Source: Ignavibacteria bacterium (GTDB lineage: Bacteria > Bacteroidota > Ignavibacteria > Tepidaquicellales > Tepidaquicellaceae). From it: a stretch of DNA of 64,000 nucleotides. A program made the translations under genes and the position numbers. Below the pieces are notes generated by a model that did not search any database, was not told where the DNA came from, and saw only the letters and a program-made list of their open reading frames with translations. Below, piece by piece: positions 3,251-59,744 of this stretch; position 1 is the first letter of the stretch, and each line of letters opens with the position of its first letter. The stretch covers positions 872 to 64,871 of the forward strand of contig JBBRMY010000002.1 in the NCBI GenBank assembly GCA_038230595.1. The letters are read 5' to 3'.

Positions 3251-3293
3251 AAAATTGGTGAAATGGTTGGATTGGAAGCAGGGAAAGGGGTTT
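3251..3293 (+). repeat. G-module of the intergenic mosaic (aaaattggtgaaatggttggattggaagcagggaaaggggttt)
   Basis: Homologous by eye to 18193-18237. Confidence 0.6.
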
Positions 3294-3392
3294 TATAAGA
3301 AAAGAGTGGATCAGCGAAGGTTTTCATTGATGATAAAAGTATTCGGGGACGAACATGGGAAAATGGTTTTGCCGCTTTGCGGAATTCAAGGA

Positions 3393-3415
3393 TTCCTGCT
3401 TTCGCAGGAATGACA
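3393..3415 (+). repeat. B-type hairpin plus GACA tail (TTCCTGC-tttc-GCAGGAA-TGACA)
   Basis: Perfect 7 bp stem, tetraloop, TGACA tail. Part of a 53 bp composite (3363-3415) homologous to 18591-18644. Confidence 0.8.
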
Positions 3416-9958: not shown

Positions 9959-10028
9959 GATATATGGGTAATTATAGACGCAATATTTTGCGCCTATATA
10001 ATTTGATTGATATCATAAAATAATTGGA

Positions 10029-10056
10029 TCCCCGATAAATGCATTCGGGGATGACA
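10029..10056 (+). repeat. C-type hairpin plus GACA tail (TCCCCGA-taaatgcat-TCGGGGA-TGACA)
   Basis: Perfect 7 bp stem. Located in the spacer between the SBP and ATPase genes of the ABC operon. Confidence 0.8.
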
Positions 10057-10083
10057 ATTAATATGAGATCATATTAATTGTCA
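10052..10083 (-). promoter_or_regulatory. 13 bp perfect inverted repeat overlapping the SBP stop codon (TGACAATTAATAT-gagatc-ATATTAATTGTCA)
   Basis: Together with the adjacent C-type hairpin it forms a double stem-loop between the SBP gene and the ATPase gene. Confidence 0.5.
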
Positions 10084-12025: not shown

Positions 12026-12123
12026 GTAACAATATTATGAATTAAGGTGATATTTGAAATTAACAAATTTTTGCTTGGTGGATGATGGCAGCAAATGGTG
12101 GAGCCCGAGATATTCTTCAGATG

Positions 12124-12167
12124 GCCGTTGATGACGTTCCGATAAATCGGAACTAAACACCAACGGC
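12124..12167. repeat. A-type nested palindrome (GCCGTTGGTG-ac-GTTCCGAT-aa-ATCGGAAC-taaa-CACCAACGGC), copy 1
   Basis: Outer arms gccgttgatg/caccaacggc and inner perfect palindrome gttccgataaatcggaac. Confidence 0.85.
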
Positions 12168-12235
12168 GGAGAATCAAATTTTTGCTTGATGGATGTTGGT
12201 AACAAATGGTAGAGCCCGAGATATTACTTCAGATG

Positions 12236-12279
12236 GCCGTTGGTGACGTTCCGATAAATCGGAATTAAACACCAACGGC
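12236..12279. repeat. A-type nested palindrome, copy 2
   Basis: gccgttggtgacgttccgataaatcggaattaaacaccaacggc. Confidence 0.85.
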
Positions 12280-12296
12280 GGAGAATCCTAAAGATG

Positions 12297-12325
12297 GTTG
12301 TTGGTGGAAGAGCAACACCAACAAC
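12297..12325. repeat. A-type short variant (outer arms only)
   Basis: gttgttggtg-gaagagcaa-caccaacaac. 10 bp perfect arms with compensatory C-to-T/G-to-A changes relative to the long copies. Confidence 0.75.
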
Positions 12326-12334
12326 GGCAAATAT

Positions 12335-13655: not shown

Positions 13656-13925
13656 TCATTTTATTAAAAGCATTTTTTTAGTTTCTGTAATATCTCCCGA
13701 AATAAGCTTGTAGAAATATATTCCGCTTGTTAAAGCCGAAGCATTAAACCTGACCTCATAAGTACTGGGCTGCAATGATTCATTTACTAACTCTGCTACC
13801 TGCTGACCGATAAGATTATAAACTGTAACTCTTGTCAAAGATGATTTCGTAAGAGAGAATTTTATAGTCGTTTCAGGATTAAACGGGTTAGGATAATTCT
13901 GCTCAAGTTTAAAATTAACCGGGAT
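13656..13925 (-). repeat. near-identical T9SS CTD-coding segment, paralogous to 14517-14786
   Basis: About 270 nt, roughly 85% identical by eye to the 3' end of the neighbouring gene. This is far closer than to the other three CTDs in the window. Confidence 0.75.
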
Positions 13926-14474
13926 ATTTTCAGAAATTGAATGTACAGTAGTAGAAGGACTTACTGTTACTGAGCTGCTTATCGCAAAATTCCAGTCGTC
14001 TCCGGAAGCAAGACTGTCTCTATTAGTCGTAACCCCAGCTGCAAATATAGTATCCACTGTACCAAAAGCCGGAGCTGTGTAAGTGAACTGAAGCTGCGCT
14101 ATTCCGTTTACCAATGCTATGTTTGTGTTCTGAGTCAGTTCGCCGTTCATAAGATGTAATCTGGGATCAACAACTGAAAGTGAACCGCTTCTGACAGAAA
14201 TGTTCAATCCTGTTCCGGTTTTTGTTCTTGATTCAGTAAGAACTGTTACAGTGCAGGTTATAGACTGACCCGGAGTAACATTGTGAAGGTTAGTAATAAT
14301 AATTCCCAAGTTTCCGGGTGTAACAGGACCATGACAACTTCCGCATCCATCTGAAGAAGTTTTTAAAGTTCTCCCTGAGATGCCATGTATGTATGCCATA
14401 CAATATTGGGTTACAAAAATATTTAAAAAGAGAATCACAAATACCGGTAACATAATTGATCTAAAATTTTTCAT
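13656..14474 (-). CDS. T9SS C-terminal-domain secreted protein with a CxxCH motif (CGSCH)
   Basis: Signal peptide, SSDGCGSCHGP near the N-terminus, and a C-terminal QNYPNPFNPETTIKF...GIYFYKL...KKMLLIK sorting domain. Confidence 0.7.
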   Translation of the reverse strand: MKNFRSIMLPVFVILFLNIFVTQYCMAYIHGISGRTLKTSSDGCGSCHGPVTPGNLGIIITNLHNVTPGQSITCTVTVLTESRTKTGTGLNISVRSGSLSVVDPRLHLMNGELTQNTNIALVNGIAQLQFTYTAPAFGTVDTIFAAGVTTNRDSLASGDDWNFAISSSVTVSPSTTVHSISENIPVNFKLEQNYPNPFNPETTIKFSLTKSSLTRVTVYNLIGQQVAELVNESLQPSTYEVRFNASALTSGIYFYKLISGDITETKKMLLIK

Positions 14475-14516
14475 AGTGTTTCTGTTTTAATTTTACAATT
14501 TTTCTAAACATCAACT

Positions 14517-14786
14517 TTACTTTATTAAAAGCATTTTTTTAGTCTCTGTAACATCGCCTGAAACAAGCTTGTAGAAATATATTCCGCTTGGAAAAGCCGA
14601 GCCATTGAATCTTACATCATATGTTCCCGGCTGCAGTGATTCATTGATTAATTCTGCTACCTGCTGACCGATAAGATTATACACTGCAATTCGTGTTAAA
14701 GATGATCTCGTCAGAGAGAATTTAATAGTTGTCTCGGGATTAAACGGATTCGGATAATTCTGTTCCAGATGAAACTTATCCGGTAA
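14517..14786 (-). repeat. near-identical T9SS CTD-coding segment, paralogous to 13656-13925
   Basis: See 13656-13925. Confidence 0.75.
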
Positions 14787-16526
14787 CTGAGAACTTATAT
14801 TATGCACTGCTGCAACTGTAGATGTATCCAGATAAAAATTTACTGTATCCAATGAAGTGGATGAAACATTTATCTGTCTTGATGAATTCTGATATCCTAC
14901 CCTGTAAACCATTGCATTATATGTGCCTGCCGGAACTCTTGAGATATTATATTGCTGTAATGTATTGCTCACCCCGAAACCTTTATATATGCTGCCCTGC
15001 TTCAGATAAACAATTGCATCTTTATTGTAAGGGAAATTACCCGGCTGCTGCGGAGGTATATAATTCAGATATGCATAGCCGCCAACATGTAAGTTTGCTG
15101 AATTCAATCCGGTTGTATCTATTCTGAAAACATTTACATTTATATTTGTCAGATTGCCTGTAAGATTTAACGCTGTTGCAGCCGCCCAATCAACAGTTGA
15201 AGGGAAATAGGTCGGCACATAATCAAGTACATCATTTGGAAATATTATAACTCTTAGTTCCGGATTTCCCGGTACATTTGGTAAAAGATAATTGCCTGCC
15301 GAAACCACAGCAGAATCAACTATTATAACTTCCAGCGTACTGACATCTCTTCTTAATATTTTTGCGGTTCCTGAAGCTACCGGCTGATTATTATCAGAGT
15401 ATTTTACTGATCCAGAAACTGAACTTATAGAAACGCTTCCCCATCTTGAAATATGCTTTGCATATTTACCGCCTGAAGTTGTGAATTCACCACCAACATA
15501 TAAGCTTGTATCTGTTCCGAAAATATAAACATAAGTGCAATAAACTTTTTCATTCATTCCTGTTGATAATCTTGACCAGGTAACTCCGTTCCATTGCGCA
15601 ATTCGATCTACAAATACATTTCCGGTTGAATGAAAATTACCGCCGGCTATCAATAACCCTTTAAAAGAACAGAGTGTGTTAACATCATTATCCTGAGTGC
15701 CTCCAACAGGAGTCCATGAACTTCCTGAATACTGAGATATATTATAACCTGTTCCGGCTTTTCCACCGGCATACAGTATATTATTATTTACTGTTAAAGC
15801 AAAAACTCTGTCACTTCCCGTACCGAATCCGCTTCCGATGGCAGACCAAACAAGATCATCCCATGCAGCTACATTATTTACAGCAATTGAACCGCTTGCT
15901 GTATTAATCCTGCCTCCGGCTACGAGCTTAGTACCAAACAGAGTGAAAGCATAAACTTTAGAACTGTTGTTTGTATTAAAGCCGCCGCCTACATCAGACC
16001 ATACTGTTCCGTTCCATCTGCCGATTCTGTTCGCAGAAACACCGCCGGCATTATCAAATTCTCCGCCTGCATAAAGCTTTGCATTATAAACTATCAGAGC
16101 TCTCACTTCTGCATTTGTACCGCTGCCTAAAGCACTCCAGGAAGAGCCGTTCCATCGTGCTATGTTGTTAGCCGGTGTGCCTCCTGCAGAAGTGAAATTT
16201 CCGCCCGCATAAAGATCTCCGTTATAAACTACCAATGAATAAACTGTGTCACTTGGGGAACCTATTCCTGATCCGAGGGGTGACCAGGAAGAACCATTCC
16301 ACATTGCTATATTTCTGGCTAATATATCTCCTCCATAAGTAAAGCTGCCCGTAACTATAATATTACCATTGTATCTTGTGAACGCTTTCACAACTCCGTT
16401 GGTTCCGTTTATAGCTGGGCTCCCCAATGGTGACCAGTCTAAGACCTGTGAGTTAACAACTTTTATATTTCCTAAAAGAAGGGAAATAAAAAGCACGGCT
16501 AATATCTTTATAATTTTTTGTGTCAT
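14517..16526 (-). CDS. T9SS C-terminal-domain secreted protein with about 6 W-N-G-x-x-W-S repeats (beta-propeller-like)
   Basis: Repeats IAMWNGSSWSPLGSG / IARWNGSSWSALGSG / IGRWNGTVWSDVGGG / VAAWDDLVWSAIGSG / IAQWNGVTWSRLSTG, followed by an Ig-like region and the T9SS CTD. Confidence 0.7.
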   Translation of the reverse strand: MTQKIIKILAVLFISLLLGNIKVVNSQVLDWSPLGSPAINGTNGVVKAFTRYNGNIIVTGSFTYGGDILARNIAMWNGSSWSPLGSGIGSPSDTVYSLVVYNGDLYAGGNFTSAGGTPANNIARWNGSSWSALGSGTNAEVRALIVYNAKLYAGGEFDNAGGVSANRIGRWNGTVWSDVGGGFNTNNSSKVYAFTLFGTKLVAGGRINTASGSIAVNNVAAWDDLVWSAIGSGFGTGSDRVFALTVNNNILYAGGKAGTGYNISQYSGSSWTPVGGTQDNDVNTLCSFKGLLIAGGNFHSTGNVFVDRIAQWNGVTWSRLSTGMNEKVYCTYVYIFGTDTSLYVGGEFTTSGGKYAKHISRWGSVSISSVSGSVKYSDNNQPVASGTAKILRRDVSTLEVIIVDSAVVSAGNYLLPNVPGNPELRVIIFPNDVLDYVPTYFPSTVDWAAATALNLTGNLTNINVNVFRIDTTGLNSANLHVGGYAYLNYIPPQQPGNFPYNKDAIVYLKQGSIYKGFGVSNTLQQYNISRVPAGTYNAMVYRVGYQNSSRQINVSSTSLDTVNFYLDTSTVAAVHNISSQLPDKFHLEQNYPNPFNPETTIKFSLTRSSLTRIAVYNLIGQQVAELINESLQPGTYDVRFNGSAFPSGIYFYKLVSGDVTETKKMLLIK

Positions 16527-17383
16527 TATTGTTTTTTGTTAAGCTTTAATTTTTTATACTCTTCAATAGTGTGTGACCTTGTCCAGCAATCATCAAAATA
16601 TTCAGCCATAGCTTTTGCATAATTTTCATTTCTTATTATTACGTCAGATCTGTTATTTTTTGAAATCGCAGGGTTGATCAAATTTACATAAACAGCTTTC
16701 CTGTCAAATATCGCCATAGTCTGGAACACTTCATCAGTCAGTCTCACAGCACCCACATCATCCTGTAGTCCCCCTGCAATTTCAAAAAAATTCTTCTCTG
16801 TAACATTCTGCCAGATACCATCAATAGATATCTTGAAATTGTATCCGACTTCGTACAGTGTCTTTATTACTCCGCCTTGCTTCATAAAGTTCATAGAAAA
16901 CTCATCAACTTCACTATCAATATGCCCTTCCAGCTTGTTCATCAGCAGCATTTCTTTGCTTGACTCTTTCCACAGTTCCATGAATTTCAGGTCACGGTGC
17001 TTATTAAATCCCTTAATAAGCTCTACTTCCCTCTTTTCTTTAGAACTCTCTTTAGCTTTAAAGACCGGATGAAGCTTTTCAAACGATTCTTTAAGCTTTG
17101 AAACTCTTGAAGTATAGGTATCATGAAAATCCTTTTGTATCTTATCCTCTACTATTTTAGGGTCAATGATCTCATAAAGAGCAGCCGAACTGGTTGAGAT
17201 CTCATTGCATATTCCCTTTTTAGTAAAGGATCTTAAGATATCATAAGTGGATGTACGCGGGATCTTGGCTTCTTTTGCGATCTCAGAAGCAGTCATAGTT
17301 CTGCCTTCAAAAAGCACGCAAAAAACTTTCGATTCGTAATTCGTAAATCCTAAGGATTCAAGATTTTTAACTATATCTTCCAT
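16526..17383 (-). CDS. TrmB family transcriptional regulator
   Basis: N-terminal LESLGFTNYESKVFCVLFEGRTMTASEIAKEAKIPRTSTYDILRSFTKKGI winged-helix of the TrmB type. Its stop overlaps the start of the 669 aa gene by 1 nt. Confidence 0.8.
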   Translation of the reverse strand: MEDIVKNLESLGFTNYESKVFCVLFEGRTMTASEIAKEAKIPRTSTYDILRSFTKKGICNEISTSSAALYEIIDPKIVEDKIQKDFHDTYTSRVSKLKESFEKLHPVFKAKESSKEKREVELIKGFNKHRDLKFMELWKESSKEMLLMNKLEGHIDSEVDEFSMNFMKQGGVIKTLYEVGYNFKISIDGIWQNVTEKNFFEIAGGLQDDVGAVRLTDEVFQTMAIFDRKAVYVNLINPAISKNNRSDVIIRNENYAKAMAEYFDDCWTRSHTIEEYKKLKLNKKQ

Positions 17384-17473
17384 TTACCTTGTGAACATTC
17401 CTATTAAAACCAGAATAGCCAAAAATGCTGCAAGTCCAAATCCGAAGACGTTGAAATTTGATTGTTTGTCCAT
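17384..17473 (-). CDS. candidate 29 aa single-TM micro-protein (MDKQSNFNVFGFGLAAFLAILVLIGMFTR)
   Basis: Manual translation. Its TAA stop directly abuts the TrmB ATG (TAAATG), suggesting translational coupling. One hydrophobic helix. Not in the ORF track because it is under 60 aa. Confidence 0.3.
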   Translation of the reverse strand: MDKQSNFNVFGFGLAAFLAILVLIGMFTR

Positions 17474-17505
17474 GATGTTTTTAGAGTTTAAATTTAGCTT
17501 CAACA

Positions 17506-17531
17506 ATTGTCGTAGCCTTAACTACGACAAT
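17506..17531. promoter_or_regulatory. perfect 10 bp inverted repeat (ATTGTCGTAG-ccttaa-CTACGACAAT), candidate operator upstream of the micro-ORF/TrmB operon
   Basis: Located 33-58 nt upstream of the 17473 start on the minus strand. Palindromic sites are typical of TrmB-type autoregulation. Confidence 0.35.
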
Positions 17532-17935
17532 ATTAGTAAGAATTAGATGTAATGTCAATAGCAAAATTAAAAATATTTTTGTATTGGGATTTTACCTATG
17601 ATAAAGAGAATGAAATATAGTTTTTCTCAATCCAATATTTGTAAAAGTATTTTTAAATAACAGGTCGCTCTTACGGAGCTAATCATAAATGGATAATTTT
17701 TTCTAGAAATAGAACGCCTCCCACGGAGCTAAAAATAATCAAAAAATTTTTTAATACAAAAAGTTAAAATTTATATATAGAAATCCCACAAGCTGTTGAA
17801 GAGCTTAGGAAAATTTTATAGTTTAATATTTAATATTTTTTTATAAGACCGAAAATAACAATAATAAAATATTTGTTACCCCCGTACCCTTATTTATTAA
17901 AAAGGGTGAAATAGAAATAGTATTTATTAAATCAA

Positions 17936-18085
17936 GCCTCCGTTAAGTCTGTAAAGTCCCTGTTACCACAGTCGGACTGATTCAGGGCAGACAACCGGTC
18001 TGCAAGCGGGATCTTTTGAAATCGCAACCCGTGACCGCACCGGCATGTTCAGGTCAGTTAAATTAATGCCGATCCGAGGGAAACA
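17936..18085. ncRNA. candidate structured RNA (GC-rich island, three local hairpins); identity unknown
   Basis: Complementary pairs seen by eye: gtctg..ccctg/caggg-cagac (17947-17992), cggtc..cggg/cccg..gaccg (17996-18037), cggcat/atgccg (18041-18071). The island is markedly more GC-rich than its AT-rich surroundings and lies in a 1.28 kb ORF-free region. Confidence 0.25.
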
Positions 18086-18192
18086 AAATATTATTAAATT
18101 TGGTGTTACCGGGAAACCAAGATTTAAAAGGAATCCATATATTTTTAGGTGAAGCTTTAGTTATAAATTTTATTATATACAAAATTGCAAAG

Positions 18193-18237
18193 AAAATTGG
18201 AGAGTGGTTTGGAAATTGATATGGGGGGAAAGGGATT
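18193..18237 (+). repeat. G-module of the intergenic mosaic, second copy
   Basis: aaaattggagagtggtttggaaattgatatggggggaaagggatt. Confidence 0.6.
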
Positions 18238-18291
18238 ATTTATTTTTACAGGTGTTTGTTGATGTGTTATAATCAAAAAGAAGTAGTAATG

Positions 18292-18336
18292 GCTGTTGGT
18301 GACGTTCCGATAAATCGGAACTCAAACACCAACAGC
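18292..18336. repeat. A-type nested palindrome, copy 3
   Basis: gctgttggtgacgttccgataaatcggaactcaaacaccaacagc. Confidence 0.85.
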
Positions 18337-18392
18337 GGCGAGGAGAGGTGCATCCAGCAAGTGACACAAAAGCTTCCGTTGCTTCGCAACAG

Positions 18393-18420
18393 TCCCCGAC
18401 AAAAGCATTCGGGGACGACA
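18393..18420 (+). repeat. C-type hairpin plus GACA tail (TCCCCGA-caaaagcat-TCGGGGA-CGACA)
   Basis: Same architecture as 10029-10056. Confidence 0.8.
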
Positions 18421-18480
18421 CTATTGGGGCAACCAGTTTTTTGCGAAAACAAGAATAGGATTTAAAAACCTATGATTGGA

Positions 18481-18508
18481 TTCCAGCCAGAAGCATGCTG
18501 GAATGACA
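18481..18508 (+). repeat. D-type hairpin plus GACA tail (TTCCAGC-cagaagcat-GCTGGAA-TGACA)
   Basis: C-type loop (..aagcat) and tail combined with a fully different but still complementary stem. Confidence 0.75.
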
Positions 18509-18520
18509 ATGTTGGGATGC

Positions 18521-18563
18521 CCGTTGGTGACGTTCCGATAAATCGGAACTAAACACCAACAGC
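18521..18563. repeat. A-type nested palindrome, copy 4
   Basis: ccgttggtgacgttccgataaatcggaactaaacaccaacagc. Confidence 0.85.
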
Positions 18564-18621
18564 GGAAAGGTTAGATGCTCATATGTTTTAATGGTATGCG
18601 TCGCTTCGCGGAAGTTCGAGG

Positions 18622-18644
18622 TGCCTGCTTTCGCAGGCATGACA
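18622..18644 (+). repeat. B-type hairpin plus GACA tail (TGCCTGC-tttc-GCAGGCA-TGACA)
   Basis: Same loop and tail as the other B copies. The stem carries a compensatory T/A to G/C pair change. Confidence 0.8.
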
Positions 18645-18664
18645 GTAGTAGAAGGATAGTTGGA

Positions 18665-19009
18665 TTATTTATTGAATATTGCGATGTATAAAACGATCAC
18701 TCCGCTTATTGCCAGGATGGAATGTAGAATCCAAAGCCATTTGGGAGATCTTTTGTGCATGATGTCATATACGAAAAGAACAGTACCGAAAAATGCTGCG
18801 ATTAGTAATATGAAGAATGGTGCTATTGAAGAAGGAATGCTTGTAGAGAGAGATAAATAAATGATAAAGCACATCAATCCGGCTCCGCCAAATAATCCGT
18901 GTATGAAGACTACTTTTTTATTTGTTTTTCTTTTGCGGAAATAATATGACAAAACCCATATCCCGAATATCAATGCGAGAGTGAACATCCCTGCCAGGAA
19001 ATAGATCAT
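18665..19009 (-). CDS. hypothetical small membrane protein (about 4 TM)
   Basis: 114 aa, hydrophobic. Starts 4 nt after the PPK2 stop on the same strand. Confidence 0.55.
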   Translation of the reverse strand: MIYFLAGMFTLALIFGIWVLSYYFRKRKTNKKVVFIHGLFGGAGLMCFIIYLSLSTSIPSSIAPFFILLIAAFFGTVLFVYDIMHKRSPKWLWILHSILAISGVIVLYIAIFNK

Positions 19010-20192: not shown

Positions 20193-20861
20193 CTATTTTG
20201 CAAGGATCATTTTTTTAATATCAGAGGAGTAATTTGTCTGAAGCTTGTAAAAATAAATACCTGTTGAAAGTTCAGGAAAATTTGCAGAATTAAATTCAAC
20301 ATTATATGTTCCCGCTGCCTGAACCTCATTTATAAGTTGGACAATAAGCTTGCCTGTAAGACTATAGACATTAAGAGATACATTTCCGGCAGAGGTCAGA
20401 TCATACGTGATCATTGTTGTTGGATTGAATGGATTCGGATTATTCTGATGCAGCTTGAAATCAGAAATTTCAGAAATACCAAGCTTTATCTCTTCGCTAT
20501 TGATCGCAGCTCCGTGTATATCATAAGTTGAAAGCTTGTAAAAGTAAACTCCGTTCTCATCTCTTTTATCCTTATAGGAAAATGAATAAAGATTTACCGA
20601 GTCAATTGCTTCTTTCTTAATGTATGATGCAAAAAGAACTTCATCGATCAGCTTATATTCTTCAGTTCCTTTCATTTTATATTCAAGTCGGAACTTGCTT
20701 ACATTATTCGGATTGGAGATCTTCCAGTTCAGAGTAACTGATCCTTTTTTTATTTTTGCAGAATAGCCTGATATAGAATTAGGTACATCTGTCTGCGCAA
20801 AAGAAATTGCGCTCGCAAATAATAGATAGAATAGAATTTTATATGTAATGGATAACTTCAC
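20193..20861 (-). CDS. T9SS C-terminal-domain secreted protein (FN3-like N-domain)
   Basis: Signal peptide and a C-terminal HQNNPNPFNPTT...GIYFYKL...KKMILAK. Confidence 0.7.
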   Translation of the reverse strand: MKLSITYKILFYLLFASAISFAQTDVPNSISGYSAKIKKGSVTLNWKISNPNNVSKFRLEYKMKGTEEYKLIDEVLFASYIKKEAIDSVNLYSFSYKDKRDENGVYFYKLSTYDIHGAAINSEEIKLGISEISDFKLHQNNPNPFNPTTMITYDLTSAGNVSLNVYSLTGKLIVQLINEVQAAGTYNVEFNSANFPELSTGIYFYKLQTNYSSDIKKMILAK

Positions 20862-29246: not shown

Positions 29247-29302
29247 CCCGAGGGTCAATTCATTAAAAGCGGTTGATCTTAGGTGGAAAGTGGAATATTA
29301 AG

Positions 29303-29338
29303 AAAAGCGACCTGACAGGGAAAAGAATCTGTCAGGTC
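29303..29338 (-). terminator. E-type repeated terminator hairpin
   Basis: gacctgacagg-gaaaagaat-ctgtcaggtc with the flanking aaaagc on the plus strand (GCTTTTC on the minus strand). Downstream of pgl and its repeat mosaic. Confidence 0.6.
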
Positions 29339-29349
29339 AATGTTTGGTG

Positions 29350-29394
29350 GCCGTTGGTGGCGTTCCGATAAATCGAAACTAAAACACCAACGGC
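29350..29394. repeat. A-type nested palindrome, copy 5
   Basis: gccgttggtggcgttccgataaatcgaaactaaaacaccaacggc. Confidence 0.8.
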
Positions 29395-29458
29395 GGCGGA
29401 GACTTCAATGGCATTGGATTTAGTCTTTGTATAAAATGTAAGTGTTTCATTATCGGAA

Positions 29459-29481
29459 TTCCTGCTTTCGCAGGAATGACA
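29459..29481 (+). repeat. B-type hairpin plus GACA tail
   Basis: ttcctgctttcgcaggaatgaca, identical to the copy at 3393-3415. Confidence 0.85.
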
Positions 29482-29517
29482 AAGATTTTGATGGCTGTTG
29501 GTATTAAAAGTTCGGGA

Positions 29518-29545
29518 TCCCAGATAAAAGCATTCGGGGAAGACA
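29518..29545 (+). repeat. C-type hairpin, degenerate left arm (TCCCAGA-taaaagcat-TCGGGGA-AGACA)
   Basis: Right arm, loop and GACA tail are conserved. The left arm has one mismatch. Confidence 0.65.
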
Positions 29546-29564
29546 TTTTGTAAGGAAGTAGCAA

Positions 29565-30275: not shown

Positions 30276-30330
30276 AAAATAAATAGAAGTAAAACAATTC
30301 TTTCAGAAAGCTGCCTTCAAAAGTGGTATG

Positions 30331-30359
30331 GCTGTTGGTGGATAAGCAACACCAACAGC
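30331..30359. repeat. A-type short variant, copy 2
   Basis: gctgttggtg-gataagcaa-caccaacagc, in the pgl-zwf intergenic spacer. Confidence 0.75.
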
Positions 30360-30375
30360 GGCAATTACTTAATTA

Positions 30376-32815: not shown

Positions 32816-32935
32816 ACAAAACTCCTTTTAAATTTTAAAGATTAATTTATGGTAAATCTATTAATAATGTAATAACAAACGAGGTTATATTAATTCCGAA
32901 AAACATTTGATGCAATGTAAGAACAACTTATTTAT

Positions 32936-32971
32936 AAAAGCGACCTGACAGGAAAAATAACCTGTCAGGTC
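32936..32971 (-). terminator. E-type repeated terminator hairpin
   Basis: gacctgacagg-aaaaataa-cctgtcaggtc, 11 bp perfect stem, GCTTTTAT on the minus strand. Starts 5 nt after the cca stop codon. Confidence 0.7.
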
Positions 32972-32975
32972 AGAT

Positions 32976-34536: not shown

Positions 34537-35532
34537 TTACTTACTGTTGCTTTCAATTTCTTTTAAGATCCTTGATGCTACATCGAGGGCTGTTCTTCCG
34601 TCTTCCAGTGTAACATATGGCTCAGTATCATTTATAATGCTTTCAATAAATTTCTCAAGTTCGAATTTAAGAGGGTTTATTTCTTCGACTGCAGGCTTTT
34701 CATAAATTATTTTGTGGCTTTTACCGTTATGCTCTATAGTTCCGAAATTGAATCCGGAGTTTTCTTCATCTTTATCACTTAATCTGAAAACTTCAGATGT
34801 GTTGGTGGAAAAATCTACAGAAAGATAAGCGTTTTTTTGAAAGAGTCTCATCTTTCTCATTTTGTTAAGAGATATTCTTGATGCTGTAATATTTGCGACG
34901 CATCCATTCTCAAATTCAAGACGGGCATTTGCTATATCAATCTTATCACTAATTATGGCAACTCCATTTGCAGATATTTTAGTAACAGGTGACTTTACAA
35001 GATTTAAAATAATGTCAATATCATGGATCATAAGATCCTGAACTACAGATACATCAGTTCCCCGTGGATTAAACTGAGACAATCTGTGCGATTCAATAAA
35101 TAAAGGTTTAATATTAAAGTTTTCAAGTGATAGAATTGCAGGATTAAATCTTTCTATGTGACCTATCTGAACTTTAACTTTATGCTTTTTTTCGAGAACT
35201 AATAATTTATCAGCTTCAACTATAGTATCAGTGACAGGCTTCTCAATAAAAGTATTAACTCCTGCTGAAAGTGTTTTTTCTGCAAGCTCATAATGGAATG
35301 AGGTTGGAGTTACTATAATAGCAGCATTTATATTAGCAATAAGCTCTTCAGGAGTATTAAATACTTTTAGAGAGTTTTCTTCTGCTATCTGCTTCATTTT
35401 TTCTGCATCGGTGTCAAAGATACCAATGACTTCAGTGTCTTTTCTTTCGCTGCTGATCTCTTTAAGAAGCTTTAGATGAAGCTTACCGAGATGTCCAATA
35501 CCGAAAATCCCTGCTTTTATTTTTTTGCTCAT
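34537..35532 (-). CDS. Gfo/Idh/MocA family oxidoreductase
   Basis: N-terminal KAGIFGIGHLGKLHLK Rossmann motif and EKP motif. Confidence 0.8.
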   Translation of the reverse strand: MSKKIKAGIFGIGHLGKLHLKLLKEISSERKDTEVIGIFDTDAEKMKQIAEENSLKVFNTPEELIANINAAIIVTPTSFHYELAEKTLSAGVNTFIEKPVTDTIVEADKLLVLEKKHKVKVQIGHIERFNPAILSLENFNIKPLFIESHRLSQFNPRGTDVSVVQDLMIHDIDIILNLVKSPVTKISANGVAIISDKIDIANARLEFENGCVANITASRISLNKMRKMRLFQKNAYLSVDFSTNTSEVFRLSDKDEENSGFNFGTIEHNGKSHKIIYEKPAVEEINPLKFELEKFIESIINDTEPYVTLEDGRTALDVASRILKEIESNSK

Positions 35533-35545
35533 ATTTTATTTTATG

Positions 35546-35572
35546 TCACGCAAAGCTCGCAAAGGCGCAAAG
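35546..35572 (+). repeat. R repeat copy 1 (TCACGCAAAGCTCGCAAAGGCGCAAAG)
   Basis: Internally three CGCAAAG units. Begins 14 nt beyond the Gfo/Idh/MocA start codon, i.e. in that gene's leader on the minus strand. Confidence 0.85.
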
Positions 35573-35612
35573 CATTATTATTAACTTTTATTCAATCAGT
35601 TTCCTTTTTGTT

Positions 35613-35639
35613 TCACGCAAAGCTCGCAAAGGCGCAAAG
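35613..35639 (+). repeat. R repeat copy 2
   Basis: Identical 27-mer to copy 1. Lies 19 nt downstream of the GxxExxY stop on the minus-strand reading. Confidence 0.85.
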
Positions 35640-35657
35640 AATTTTTAAATATTTATG

Positions 35658-36038
35658 CTATAAATTGTTAACTATTCTTTTAATACCATCTTTTAACAAT
35701 TCAACATTAAAATTGATTAAGAGACCTAATTTAATATTTGTTAGTCTCAAATATGTTAATAATATTTTACTATGGACTGGTGCAATAGCTTCAATAGATT
35801 TAAGCTCAATAATAAGTTTATCTTCCACAATTATGTCTGCTCGAAAACCCATATCTAATTTTATTGATTCATAAACAACTGCAATAGAAGGTTGTCTTTT
35901 TATATTGTAGCCAAGCTTAATAAGTTCAAAACAAAGAATTTCTTCATAAACAGATTCAAGTAATCCTGGACCTAGTGTTTTATGTATTTTAAAACATTGA
36001 TCTAGAACTGTTTTTGATAAATCATTTTCTGTAAGCAT
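35658..36038 (-). CDS. GxxExxY protein (PD-(D/E)XK-like small nuclease-fold family)
   Basis: HKTLGPGLLESVYEEILCFEL contains the G-x-x-E-x-x-Y signature. DIIVEDKLIIELK matches the D...E-x-K core. 126 aa. Confidence 0.8.
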   Translation of the reverse strand: MLTENDLSKTVLDQCFKIHKTLGPGLLESVYEEILCFELIKLGYNIKRQPSIAVVYESIKLDMGFRADIIVEDKLIIELKSIEAIAPVHSKILLTYLRLTNIKLGLLINFNVELLKDGIKRIVNNL

Positions 36039-36052
36039 ATTTTATATAATTT

Positions 36053-36079
36053 TCACTCAAAGCTCGCAACGGCGCAAAG
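36053..36079 (+). repeat. R repeat copy 3 (TCACTCAAAGCTCGCAACGGCGCAAAG)
   Basis: 2 mismatches to copy 1. Lies in the leader of the GxxExxY gene. The flanks are also homologous to the flanks of copy 1. Confidence 0.8.
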
Positions 36080-36183
36080 CATTATTAATAATTTTAATAT
36101 ATTTAAAGTATAAATATTAGCCATTTGGCAAATCAAGTTTTTTATGATTACATTTTGTTTTTAAATATTATATAAAAGCTTTT

Positions 36184-41149: not shown

Positions 41150-42709
41150 TTATTTTATCAAGATCATCTTCTTTGTCTCCGAAAAATTATCTGTAACAAG
41201 CTTGTAAAAATAAATTCCGCTCGCAATCCCTGAACCATCAAAGGCTGCACTATGATTTCCTGCATTTTGCTTTACCATTATAAGCGTTTCAATCTCATTT
41301 CCCAGAACATCATAAACCTTTAGTGAAACGTAAGTTGAAGTGGGCAAAGTATAATTTATTTTTGTAACCGGATTGAATGGATTCGGATAATTTTGTGATA
41401 GGTTGAACTTTAGCGGTATTTCATTTGATATAGGTTCGATACCGGTCGTTTGCGAATATTTAACAGTTATTGTGTTATTGTAACCTGTGCCGGTTACATA
41501 AACATTATTTAAATTATCAATTGCCATATCTTCAGCCGCATAAAATGTACTGGGACCGCTGCCGGGATATAAAACATACCATATCAGGTCTCCTGCTGGG
41601 TTATATTTTGTTACTCTCAAATCGCTAAAACCAGCCACTCTTTCTAATGGAGTTGTTATATATACATTTCCCTGGCTATCAAGTTTTAAAAGCGGCAAGC
41701 TTGTATAAAAAAATACAGGAAATGTTCTTATCCATTGAAATACACCATCTGTGTTATACTTTATTACTCCGTTAATATTATCTTCAATACGCACTGCAAT
41801 ATATACATTTCCGGTTTTATCTACTTCAATATCCTCGCCAGATTCACCAGGTATTTCATCCCCATATAATCTTGTCCATGCTATGTCTCCGTTTGGCTTA
41901 TATTTTATTATTAGGCAGTCGCCTACAATTCCATTTCCGGCTCTTGCATATCCGGTAACATATACATTACCTGAGTCATCAACAGTGCAGGCATTTGCTT
42001 GATCCCATGGTCGAATTGCATTATCAGGATTATTATATAAATGAGTCCACATCGTATCACCATTCGGAGAATATTTTACTGTCCCTGCAGAATAATCTAA
42101 TGGATCATTGTTATCTGTTACTCTTCCTGTAACAATAACATTATTCCATTTATCAATAGCCTGATCATAAACTGTTTCATTACCATTTCCCGGCCCATTT
42201 AAAAAACGCTGCCAGATTACATTCCCATCACTGTCGTATTTAATGGTTGCATAATCATTAATATTAATACCGCTGCTATACAAATATCCCATACTATCTA
42301 TATTCAATTTATCTCCACCGGAACCAATTCCAATAAATCTTCTTGTCCAGACAGTGTCTCCGTTATTTCTGTATTTAATTAAATATCCACCTCCGGTATA
42401 TATATTACCGGCTCTATCTAAAACAATTCCTCTTCCATAATCATTACCATTTTCAATTCCATTAAACCTTGTTATCCATTGCTGTACGCCGGATGAATTA
42501 TATTTGATTGTTCCAACATCGCCGCTTGCCCCTCCTGTTATATAAACATTGTAGGCATGATCAATAATAATTGCTAAACCCACATCGCCTCCACCTCCCG
42601 GTGTATTATAGGTTCTTGCCCATTCTAAAACAGGCTGGCTTTTAGCTGGAAAAGAATAAAATAAAATGAGTATGAATAATATATTGACCAGTTTCTTCAT
42701 TGTACTCAT
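41150..42709 (-). CDS. T9SS C-terminal-domain secreted protein with SBBP-type beta-propeller repeats
   Basis: Repeated D..GN.Y.TG...........KY...G...W units, then SQNYPNPFNPVT...GIYFYKL...KKMILIK. Confidence 0.7.
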   Translation of the reverse strand: MSTMKKLVNILFILILFYSFPAKSQPVLEWARTYNTPGGGGDVGLAIIIDHAYNVYITGGASGDVGTIKYNSSGVQQWITRFNGIENGNDYGRGIVLDRAGNIYTGGGYLIKYRNNGDTVWTRRFIGIGSGGDKLNIDSMGYLYSSGININDYATIKYDSDGNVIWQRFLNGPGNGNETVYDQAIDKWNNVIVTGRVTDNNDPLDYSAGTVKYSPNGDTMWTHLYNNPDNAIRPWDQANACTVDDSGNVYVTGYARAGNGIVGDCLIIKYKPNGDIAWTRLYGDEIPGESGEDIEVDKTGNVYIAVRIEDNINGVIKYNTDGVFQWIRTFPVFFYTSLPLLKLDSQGNVYITTPLERVAGFSDLRVTKYNPAGDLIWYVLYPGSGPSTFYAAEDMAIDNLNNVYVTGTGYNNTITVKYSQTTGIEPISNEIPLKFNLSQNYPNPFNPVTKINYTLPTSTYVSLKVYDVLGNEIETLIMVKQNAGNHSAAFDGSGIASGIYFYKLVTDNFSETKKMILIK

Positions 42710-58418: not shown

Positions 58419-59744
58419 CTATTTTACCAGGAGCATTTTTCTGGTTTCTTTTATATCTCCTACACTTAATGTATAAAAATAAACTCCGCTTGCAATATTT
58501 TTCCCGTCAAAATTCACGCTATAACTTCCTGCCGTTATTCTTTCGTTAATTAATTCTGAAATTTGCTTTCCGGTAATATCATATACTTTGAGTGTTACTA
58601 TTCCTGAAACAGGAATTTCAAAGTTGATCTTTGTATTGGGATTAAATGGATTTGGATAATTCTGCTGCAAACGGAATTTTTCAGGAACGGAACTGCTTGT
58701 AGTATTAATACCTACTGTACTTATACTTGAAAACTGCCAGGTTTCATTAGGATAGTTTCCGTCATTGCCTCCGAATATTATCAGCTTATCTCCGGACGGA
58801 CTGTAAACTGCAGTATGTCCCCATCTTGCTGTTGGCTTAATTCCTCTCTGAGCAACTGAATCCCACTTAGAAGAATCGATAGAGTATTTCCATAAGTCAC
58901 TAAGGAAAGTCGTATTTGATTGTCCTCCGAATATTACAGCCTTATTTGAATTTGTGCAGATCACCTGACTGAAAAATCTTCCTGTCGGTTTTAATGTTGG
59001 TGTAATATTTGTCCAGACAAATGTGTTCAGGTTCAAGGACCAGATATCACTTAATGCTCCGCCATGCTGTCCACCGTAAATTATCATTCTGGTCTTATCA
59101 GGAGTTATGGTGCCGGAATGGAGACATCTTAATTCCGGATGAAATGCATTAGTACGGTCAGTCCAAATCATGCTGTCAACATTAAAAGACCATGTGTCTT
59201 CAAATCTTCCGCTTGTGGTAAAGCCTGCAAAGTTCACAAGTCTTCTGTTTACAGGATCAAAAACAGCTGCAGTGCCATATCTTTTCAGCGGAACTCCTGT
59301 TACATTTCCATCAGGGGAAAGCTGCTGCCAGGAATTGCTGCTTAAGTTAAAAGCCCATACATCGTTATATAATTCTGTACCTTGTCCCGACCAGATTATC
59401 ATTCTGTTCATCAGCGAATCATAAACAGCATTCTGCGAAAAGCGAGGCGCCGGTAAAAGTCCAGATGTAGGAGTTATATCCTGCCAGACATTTGTATTTA
59501 AATTAAGACTCCAGACATCATTCAGAGTTCCTGCTGCATTTCTTCCGCCATACATTATCATTCTGTTGCCCGATGAAATATAAATTGAGGATGCATTGGC
59601 ACGACCGGTCGGATTTCCAGAAGTAGGTAACTGTGTCCATAACTGGGCAGATGTATACTTTGGTATTAATGCAGCTAACAATAAGCATAGAATGTAAAGC
59701 TTACTAACTTTCCTTAAAGAATTCGCCATTTTTGAGATAATCAT
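58419..59744 (-). CDS. Kelch-repeat T9SS C-terminal-domain secreted protein
   Basis: Six repeats of the type R....A.......M...GG......L.D.W..N......W, then QQNYPNPFNPNT...GVYFYTL...RKMLLVK. Confidence 0.75.
   Translation of the reverse strand: MIISKMANSLRKVSKLYILCLLLAALIPKYTSAQLWTQLPTSGNPTGRANASSIYISSGNRMIMYGGRNAAGTLNDVWSLNLNTNVWQDITPTSGLLPAPRFSQNAVYDSLMNRMIIWSGQGTELYNDVWAFNLSSNSWQQLSPDGNVTGVPLKRYGTAAVFDPVNRRLVNFAGFTTSGRFEDTWSFNVDSMIWTDRTNAFHPELRCLHSGTITPDKTRMIIYGGQHGGALSDIWSLNLNTFVWTNITPTLKPTGRFFSQVICTNSNKAVIFGGQSNTTFLSDLWKYSIDSSKWDSVAQRGIKPTARWGHTAVYSPSGDKLIIFGGNDGNYPNETWQFSSISTVGINTTSSSVPEKFRLQQNYPNPFNPNTKINFEIPVSGIVTLKVYDITGKQISELINERITAGSYSVNFDGKNIASGVYFYTLSVGDIKETRKMLLVK

Follow-up and report, generated by a model that had tools for sequence, protein, structure and literature searches.

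The intergenic stretch at positions 18193-18664 of the window, a 64,000-nt segment of an Ignavibacteria genome (contig C2:872-64871; other contigs are numbered likewise), carries a dense mosaic of short palindromes. It is most probably a pile-up, resembling bacterial interspersed mosaic elements (BIMEs), of two unrelated classes of single-stranded DNA (ssDNA) hairpin, together with the tail of a multi-copy non-coding unit. The A-type nested palindromes are, on sequence grounds, repetitive extragenic palindromes (REPs) of a Bacteroidota RAYT encoded on contig C29. The C-, D- and E-type hairpins, which end in GACA, are assigned by their tag and stem to the TGTC-tagged Ssn-related motifs (SRMs; CGTC-REP/dRS3/NTS class), and the three types are stem variants of this one class and not three families. 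The linkage between enzyme and repeat is conserved across genera, and the family membership of the elements, their copy numbers and their bias to gene 3' ends are given below. These enzymes would have spread the repeats, and the mosaic would have grown by repeated insertion combined with local duplication and recombination.

Both repeat classes have already been published, so that the elements extend known systems by new members; no earlier description for this lineage was found. An earlier note on this DNA, made from the sequence alone, was aware of no description of the organisation in the lineage, which holds at the level of the lineage and not for the repeat classes. Its "at least five families" of palindromes proved over-split and reduce to these two classes.

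Elements of the stretch

Five repeat elements, all in the same orientation, lie within 18287-18650. The features are the following.

17772-18282, plus strand: non-coding unit of about 500 nt, present in several copies; the "G-module" of the earlier note corresponds to its tail, 18193-18268
18287-18344, plus strand: A-type REP no. 1; nested palindrome 18292-18336 with outer stem 18292-18301/18327-18336, inner hairpin 18304-18310/18315-18321 and GGCG tail; nhmmer 69.8 bits; fold -16.4 kcal/mol, z = -6.1
18376-18392, plus strand: accessory small hairpin GTTGC-TTC-GCAAC (18378-18390), part of the C-type composite
18392-18421, plus strand: C-type Ssn-related hairpin; nhmmer 32.5 bits; ssDNA fold; family of about 120 loci
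18471-18513, plus strand: D-type Ssn-related hairpin; nhmmer 43.3 bits
18512-18572, plus strand: A-type REP no. 2; nested palindrome 18521-18563; nhmmer 64.6 bits; ssDNA fold
18602-18650, plus strand: E-type composite; small hairpin CGC-TTC-GCG (18602-18610), spacer, then Ssn-related hairpin

The A-type palindromes, the GTTGC hairpin, the C- and D-type hairpins and the composite were thus located where the earlier note had placed them, and the copies which it reported at other sites of the window were recovered by a repeat search at 3324-3415, 10026-10059, 12115-12333, 29348-29548 and 30328-30367. The homology of its 54 bp composite to 3363-3415 was confirmed over a shorter extent (18602-18644 versus 3373-3415, 79% identity).

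The outer stem of A-type REP no. 1 is that of the hairpins beside the C29 RAYT and its orthologues. A-type REP no. 2, which has diverged from it, consists of an outer stem (18523-18529/18554-18560) and an inner hairpin (18532-18538/18543-18549) and adjoins the D-type tail; the resulting composite, GACAAT-TTGGG-TG followed by the A-type element, was found again on C64. The C-type hairpin has an 8 bp stem resembling TCCCCGAC/GTCGGGGA, a 9-nt loop and a CGACA tail, and its minus strand reads as a TGTCG-hairpin. The D-type stem is ATTCCAGC (18480-18487/18497-18504), with a 9-nt loop and GACA at 18505-18508. The E-type Ssn-related hairpin is TGCCTGC-TTTC-GCAGGCA (18622-18639) with a TGACA tail (18640-18644); the composite is 83.6% identical over 61 nt to its copy in a paralogous mosaic on C64, and its architecture is that of the units around the GIY-YIG gene on C3. 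When ssDNA folding was compared with that of shuffled sequences, the A-, C- and D-type stretches were more stable (z = -3.4 to -6.4) and the E-type stretch weakly so (z about -2).

A-type elements and the RAYT on C29

The earlier note had found no enzyme gene in the window, and all matches to Y1 and small GIY-YIG proteins were indeed on other contigs. A RAYT gene, for which it suggested a search, was found on C29, flanked by hairpins with the A-type stem. The gene (C29:12058-12579) encodes a Y1/HUH transposase of about 175 amino acids (aa) with the motifs NHIH and YIHKNP, and its clade is present in a single copy in the genome. The protein scores 87.3 bits on the NCBIfam model REP_Tyr_transpos (NF047646, cut-off 80) and also matches PF01797; its best PDB match is 4ER8 (E. 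coli TnpA-REP), with the HUH and tyrosine regions aligned. The gene lies between inverted copies of a GCNGTTGGTG...CACCAACNGC hairpin, namely GCCGCTGTTGGTG-TTTT-CACCTACAGCC upstream in reverse orientation and GGTTGTTGGTG-AAAA-CACCAACAACGGCG downstream in forward orientation. Both are S-type hairpins, the S form being the A-type outer stem with a short loop. One inverted REP pair is present downstream of the gene.

Orthologues of the C29 RAYT, with 50-63% identity, occur in 14 of 40 relatives. Inverted flanking hairpins were present in all 12 RAYT loci read (the own locus and 11 orthologues), with loops ranging from 4 nt to about 70 nt, and also in most of 46 further named RAYT loci, Bacteroidia included (named orthologues with at least 47% identity). 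Hairpins with the GTTGGTG/CACCAAC stem flank more than 30 orthologous RAYT loci across Ignavibacteria and Bacteroidia. A comparison with named genomes confirmed that the lineage is Ignavibacteria. The GTTGGTG stem is kept in Mucilaginibacter, Cyclobacteriaceae and Cesiribacter, and compensatory variants are found at the RAYT loci of Segetibacter (TTTGCAGGTG), Pedobacter (CTGGTCGGTG) and Runella/Dyadobacter (GGTCTGTG in Runella). One orthologue (L026, G016:C36:3578-4066) has two in-frame stops and still lies between long-loop cognate hairpins, which suggests a decaying REPtron.

The consensus of the A- and S-type copies is ...CAGATGG-CTGTTGGTG...CACCAACAG-CGGCG. The loop is AAAA in 31 of 90 strict copies and carries an insert of 21-36 nt in 57; the inner stem is perfect in 43 of these 57, and its compensatory variants include GTTTCGAT, GTCTCGAT and GTTACGAT. 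It was considered that the inner hairpin might be an inserted REP of the C4-type RAYT family, since both share CGTTCC...GGAAC. This was rejected because relatives have unrelated inner hairpins between the same AC(G).../...TAAA linkers.

Subclass 2.6 of Quentin et al. 2018 (PMC6006769) comprises Bacteroidetes RAYTs that lie beside "atypical secondary structures" without a GTAG foot, and the motifs and length of the C29 protein fit this subclass. If the enzyme works as E. coli TnpA-REP does, it would recognise the extruded hairpin by its foot and outer stem and would cut and rejoin ssDNA there. The loop would then be free to vary, which would explain the AAAA-loop and nested forms found here as well as the loops of about 70 nt in relatives.

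C-, D- and E-type hairpins and the GIY-YIG gene on C3

Read on the opposite strand, the C-, D- and E-type hairpins have the order TGTC-AT-stem-loop-stem-ATCC, as in the E-type example TGTCATTCCTGCGAAAGCAGGAATCC. The E type reads TGTC-ATTCCTGC-GAAA-GCAGGAAT-CC; the C and D types have the same tag, stem form and tail but 9-nt loops. The only small GIY-YIG gene of the genome (C3:5065-5385; 98-107 aa, PF01541 64 bits) lies inside a cluster of six E-type units, with such units on both sides, and is flanked by the ATCCCTGC variant of E. A homologue of solved structure was looked for and none was found. Homologues of the gene are multi-copy in relatives, where 12 of the 13 loci read have TGTCATTCC-stem-loop-stem-GGAATC upstream and the inverse downstream, the 13th being cut by a contig end. 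The paired stems usually match each other and include ATTCCTGC (E-like), ATTCCAGC (D-like) and ATTCCCGC, which almost matches the Neisseria NTS; the Ssn gene of relative G018 (L034), for example, lies between ATTCCAGC hairpins.

The pattern TGTCWTYCC-N9-17-GGRWTC has 80 matches in this genome and is present in 38 of the 41 genomes (reversed control about 0). The median number of matches was 25 in relatives with a strong Ssn homologue and 6 in the rest (p = 0.006). An additional small GC hairpin, usually with a TTC loop and located 9-10 nt upstream, accompanies 40 of 156 SRM copies (6.75 in shuffles). The C- and E-type stems have common extended flanks, which suggests one family with swapped, interchangeable stems. 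As a separate observation, four relatives (G017, G009, G030 and G011) contain 18-36 TGTC-tagged hairpins and no, or a very weak, Ssn homologue; either the motifs are orphan there, or nuclease genes exist that have diverged or escaped assembly.

SsnA, a GIY-YIG nuclease, binds the NTS hairpin (including dRS3) in ssDNA and cuts just upstream, and "Ssn-related motifs" lie on the flanks of most of its homologues (Chenal et al. 2025, PMC11893778). The same repeats had been classed as CGTC-tagged REPs, with 8-9 bp stems starting with AT, loops of 4-5 nt, a CCA tail and TGTC variants; they were found in Chlorobi, Bacteroidetes and other phyla, no dedicated enzyme being known at the time (Di Nocera et al. 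2013, PMC3733652). The Ssn-type GIY-YIG protein of C3 is the probable partner of the C-, D- and E-type hairpins and would bind the hairpin in ssDNA and cut just 5' of it.

The identity of these enzymes also bears on whether the elements are conventional miniature inverted-repeat transposable elements that stem from insertion sequences of the DDE type, or serve as targets for a recombinase of the IS110 type. The elements are indeed short, dispersed, intergenic and clustered, and a phage recombinase is known to target dRS3 in Neisseria (PMC11893778). However, each unit is one hairpin of 25-60 nt, terminal inverted repeats enclosing a core are absent, target duplications are not obvious, and the enzymes adjoining the units are of the Y1 and GIY-YIG types. 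The search for IS110-type recombinases which the earlier note recommended gave no match to an IS110 domain anywhere in the genome, and this origin appears highly improbable.

Genome-wide distribution and spacer bias

When the region was compared with the 2.98 Mb assembly by BLAST, about 100 matches covered each A element, 74 the C element and up to 59 the E element. With iterated nhmmer models, after merging, 167 A/S loci (149 intergenic), 219 C/D/E loci and 94 loci of the P type, a further hairpin family described below, were obtained. The confinement of the elements to a few loci, which the earlier note had named as the outcome that would refute it, is thus not observed. The outer-stem pattern GTTGGTG-N(3-26)-CACCAACRGC gave 161 strand-hits (reversed control 0), and at most 17 in any of the 40 relatives (controls 0). 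When six further families are included, 660 modelled elements (28 kb) occupy 349 of about 1,606 spacers, and the spacer 17384-18664, with six elements, is among the four richest genome-wide.

The elements are strongly over-represented in convergent spacers and under-represented in divergent ones. The convergent and divergent counts are 69 and 10 for the SRMs and 45 and 4 for the P-type hairpins, against a background of 237 and 271. This strong bias to gene 3' ends would be expected if the hairpins were chiefly RNA-level elements, that is, 3'-untranslated-region stabilisers, terminators or regulatory structures, whose association with the enzymes is incidental. The compensatory changes in the stems agree with such a function, as do the accessory hairpin 18376-18392, which is followed by a T-run on the minus strand and was called terminator-like on that strand, and the A- and T-runs of the P-type hairpins, which recall bidirectional terminators. 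Yet an RNA function does not predict inverted pairs beside RAYT and Ssn genes in many genera; moreover, both orientations occur relative to the neighbouring genes and most elements have no T-run. An Rfam search of the whole window at the gathering threshold, and of 17300-18750 at E values up to 1, revealed nothing credible. A chiefly RNA-level nature is thus very unlikely, and a secondary RNA role alongside the link to the enzymes is possible.

Organisation of the mosaic

The A-type elements and the SRMs were found together in 36 spacers, compared with 11.4 expected over all spacers. Neighbouring A/SRM pairs are co-oriented in 33 of 42 cases (p = 0.0003), with a spacing of -3 to 151 nt and unrelated intervening sequences. 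A fixed module grammar between the two kinds of unit was rejected on account of this variable spacing and these unrelated sequences, and replication-strand targeting was rejected because the orientation of the elements is independent of GC skew. Contig C64 contains a partial paralogue of the whole mosaic with its parts in another order, which indicates that block duplication and rearrangement contributed to such mosaics. We read the mosaic as an accumulation in a permissive 3' spacer accompanied by local duplication, a reading which leaves the co-orientation unaccounted for.

It is tempting to speculate that the two hairpin systems interact, the hairpins of one creating or marking single-stranded insertion sites used by the other. 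Ssn would then be a true mobilising enzyme, and the RAYT would see the outer foot only, so that the loop would serve as a cargo site for arbitrary inner hairpins. This would explain both the threefold excess of shared spacers and the co-orientation of 33 of the 42 pairs; taken as a whole, we regard it as unlikely.

Setting of the stretch

The assembly is a metagenome-assembled genome (MAG) of 2.98 Mb in 313 contigs, with 35% G+C and a completeness of 93.6%. The mosaic is contained in a gene-free gap of 1.28 kb (17384-18664) between two minus-strand genes.

16526-17383, minus strand: TrmB-like regulator gene, bordering the gap
18665-19009, minus strand: gene of a 114-aa membrane protein, bordering the gap

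No exact record of the 114-aa protein was found elsewhere when searched for. The favoured reading of the spacer is that it lies downstream of a minus-strand operon and is permissive for repeats.

A repeat-rich MAG of 313 contigs raises the question of an assembly artefact, in which metagenome reads bearing repeats were joined into a chimera or collapsed. The region is situated 18 kb into a contig of 65 kb, the genes on both sides of it are coherent, and each element differs from its family consensus and from its neighbour; an artefact is for these reasons extremely unlikely. Similar mosaics are also present on many contigs.

Evidence weighing against the assignment

Several observations do not favour the assignment of the two classes and their spread by the two enzymes. 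The A/S consensus lacks the GTAG (GT[AG]G) foot of classical REPs, although this absence fits the atypical RAYT subclass 2.6. Inverted REPIN doublets are rare, A/A neighbours forming 22 direct pairs and fewer than 4 inverted ones. The orientation of the elements showed no link with the sign of local GC skew, which gene orientation tracks strongly. The relatives are too distant for an empty-site test, homologues of the neighbouring 114-aa protein being just 30-38% identical. The published SRM pattern matches only 8 sites in the genome (1-2 in shuffles), four of them D-type copies, and covers 7 of the 219 loci. The commonest local type, C with its 9-nt loop, often has no TGTC head and is not the type that flanks the one Ssn gene. 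Finally, some relatives, such as G017, are rich in SRMs without a detectable Ssn gene. Most local copies are missed by the published pattern because it excludes T at one stem position as well as long loops, and its failure is not taken as excluding the SRM class, since the Ssn genes are flanked by these hairpins.

On a rival reading, the C and D hairpins, and perhaps many A copies, are fossils without an active cognate enzyme, the region being a decaying relic shaped only by duplication and recombination. The hairpins beside the single Ssn gene are of the ATCCCTGC variant of E and do not have C or D stems, copies such as the two A-type elements of the stretch have diverged, the C64 paralogue is partial and reordered, and orphan SRMs occur in relatives that have no Ssn gene. 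On the other hand, the reading frames of the RAYT and Ssn genes are intact, the extended flanks shared by C and E stems point to one interchangeable family, and the copy numbers are among the highest of the 41 genomes. Further Ssn genes may in addition be missing from an assembly that is incomplete and fragmented at repeats. Inactivity of this kind is considered very unlikely, and the pile-up of RAYT-linked REPs and SRMs remains the preferred explanation.

The multi-copy non-coding unit

The G-module, which the earlier note had treated as a palindromic element, was misassigned and is the tail of the non-coding unit of about 500 nt. Its similarity to 3251-3297 is marginal (score 16, shuffle mean 9.2, 16 being reached in 1 of 500 shuffles), and its true relatives are the tails of three paralogous units with 85-89% identity (C66:2599-3110, C6:34144-34635 and C64:1-409). 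Further copies are found at C138:3177-3511 (minus strand, 72-75%) and, as a fragment, at C32:1-143, which gives five or six in the genome; no copy was detected in the 40 relatives. The unit has a GC-rich core (17860-18085), highly conserved at about 17860-18040, and no open reading frame (ORF), codon periodicity or Rfam match was found in it. At its end a strong sigma-70-like promoter-like site (18245-18273) agrees with 11 of 12 consensus positions. In three paralogues this site faces plus-strand genes. On C6 and C64 an A-type REP follows the unit at the same relative position as here. A new small RNA and a mobile promoter cassette are possible identities of the unit.

Other hairpin systems in the genome

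At least 11 Y1/RAYT-like genes are present, nine of them matching Pfam Y1_Tnp and a further two matching NCBIfam RAYT models, and each has hairpin repeats of its own on its flanks. Six Y1 genes with the motifs DH[IV]H and Y---Q--HH (C67:12398-12853, C174:3271-3735, C163:3956-4477, C113:1141-1611, C33:11934-12347 and C156:1106-1549) resemble subclass 1.2 of Quentin et al. 2018, and each lies beside arrays of its own hairpin; that subclass was reported without REPs (PMC6006769). The copies of these hairpins genome-wide number about 69 for R163, 31 for R113 and 21 for R174, and one R163-type copy is located in the window at 17659-17682. R163-type hairpins also form tandem arrays, of five or six units spaced by 13-22 nt, at C38:1-256, C202:1-312 and C106:6030-6501, often at contig ends, so that these repeats probably break the assembly. 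The RAYT-like genes C12:22184-22750 and C28:7167-7880 have classical REPs with a GTAG foot on their flanks (GGGCATCACAAGTGATGCCCCTACA and GGGCGAAAGATTTTTCGCCCCTACA), so that a single genome of 3 Mb contains hairpin systems of the GTAG, TGTC and untagged kinds.

The P-type hairpins (GACCTGACAGG...CCTGTCAGGTC, about 94 loci; window copies at 29296-29339 and 32929-32972) share their stem with inverted hairpins beside a weak RAYT-like gene (C36:15851-16423; 53 bits, below the cut-off). Their A-runs and T-runs and their 45 copies in convergent spacers give them the resemblance to bidirectional terminators mentioned above. The long direct repeats D1-D5 and D10 of the window (13656-14783, 20194-20559, 41150-41416 and 58419-58685) are the DNA of C-terminal domains that several secreted proteins have in common, which end in ...GIYFYKL..., appear to be type IX secretion system sorting domains and are unrelated to the hairpin families. 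Family D8 (35520-36087), three copies of a 61-nt repeat with CGCAAAG triplets, is likewise unrelated to the families analysed.

This Ignavibacteria genome of about 3 Mb is thus unusually rich in ssDNA hairpin systems, with at least 11 Y1/RAYT-like genes, an Ssn nuclease and about 220 motifs. Its Y1/RAYT-like genes have private repeat families, and unrelated systems pile up in the same spacers. For annotation, such hairpins should not be taken for new RNA families or spurious small ORFs.

Comparison with known systems

The earlier note compared the mosaic with the BIMEs of E. coli and the NIMEs of Neisseria. The likeness lies in several short palindromic units being packed into one spacer at gene 3' ends and in the recurrence of the same parts elsewhere in different combinations; it extends to the components, the A-type elements being assigned as REPs of a RAYT and the GACA hairpins to the dRS3/NTS class. 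It does not extend to strict BIME alternation. In E. coli BIMEs, Y and Z REPs belonging to one system alternate in inverted orientation and are joined by fixed linkers, whereas the units found here come from two unrelated systems, mostly share one orientation and stand at variable distances, and no alternating inverted arrangement was found. NIMEs contain longer RS units (repeat units of 50-150 bp) between dRS3 copies. Hairpins of the dRS3 type are present here, but no such repeated RS units were found beyond small accessory hairpins, the stretches between being unique or A-type REPs.

The REPtrons of subclass 2.6 (group 5 of Bertels) share with the C29 locus a single-copy Y1/HUH gene for about 175 aa with NH[LIV]H and YIHxNP, its position between inverted copies of a genome-recurrent hairpin without a GT[AG]G foot, and the co-variation of enzyme and hairpin stem between lineages. 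They differ in that the repeat is here precisely defined, with a conserved outer stem of 10-11 bp, a GGTG/CACC top and a GGCG tail, and in that the loop, of 4 nt to about 70 nt, often contains a second, co-varying hairpin. Copies number about 170, against at most 17 in the 40 relatives, and are mostly singlets or direct neighbours instead of REPIN doublets. A precisely defined REP thus becomes available for a poorly characterised Bacteroidetes RAYT subclass, and its conserved outer stem with a variable loop provides a convenient substrate on which RAYT recognition can be tested.

With the Ssn/NTS systems the C-, D- and E-type hairpins share the (C/T)GTC tag, a stem of 8 bp that opens with AT, a GAAA-type loop of 4 nt and a C after the palindrome, as well as a small single-domain GIY-YIG gene bracketed by inverted copies and hundreds of clustered intergenic copies. 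By contrast, a T in the stem or loops of 9 nt place most copies here outside the published pattern, many have a further small hairpin at a distance of 9-10 nt, a single Ssn gene is confronted with at least three stem types, and the host belongs to the Ignavibacteria, a name not found in PMC11893778 or PMC3733652. The genome therefore supplies natural variants of the Ssn motif beyond the published search pattern.

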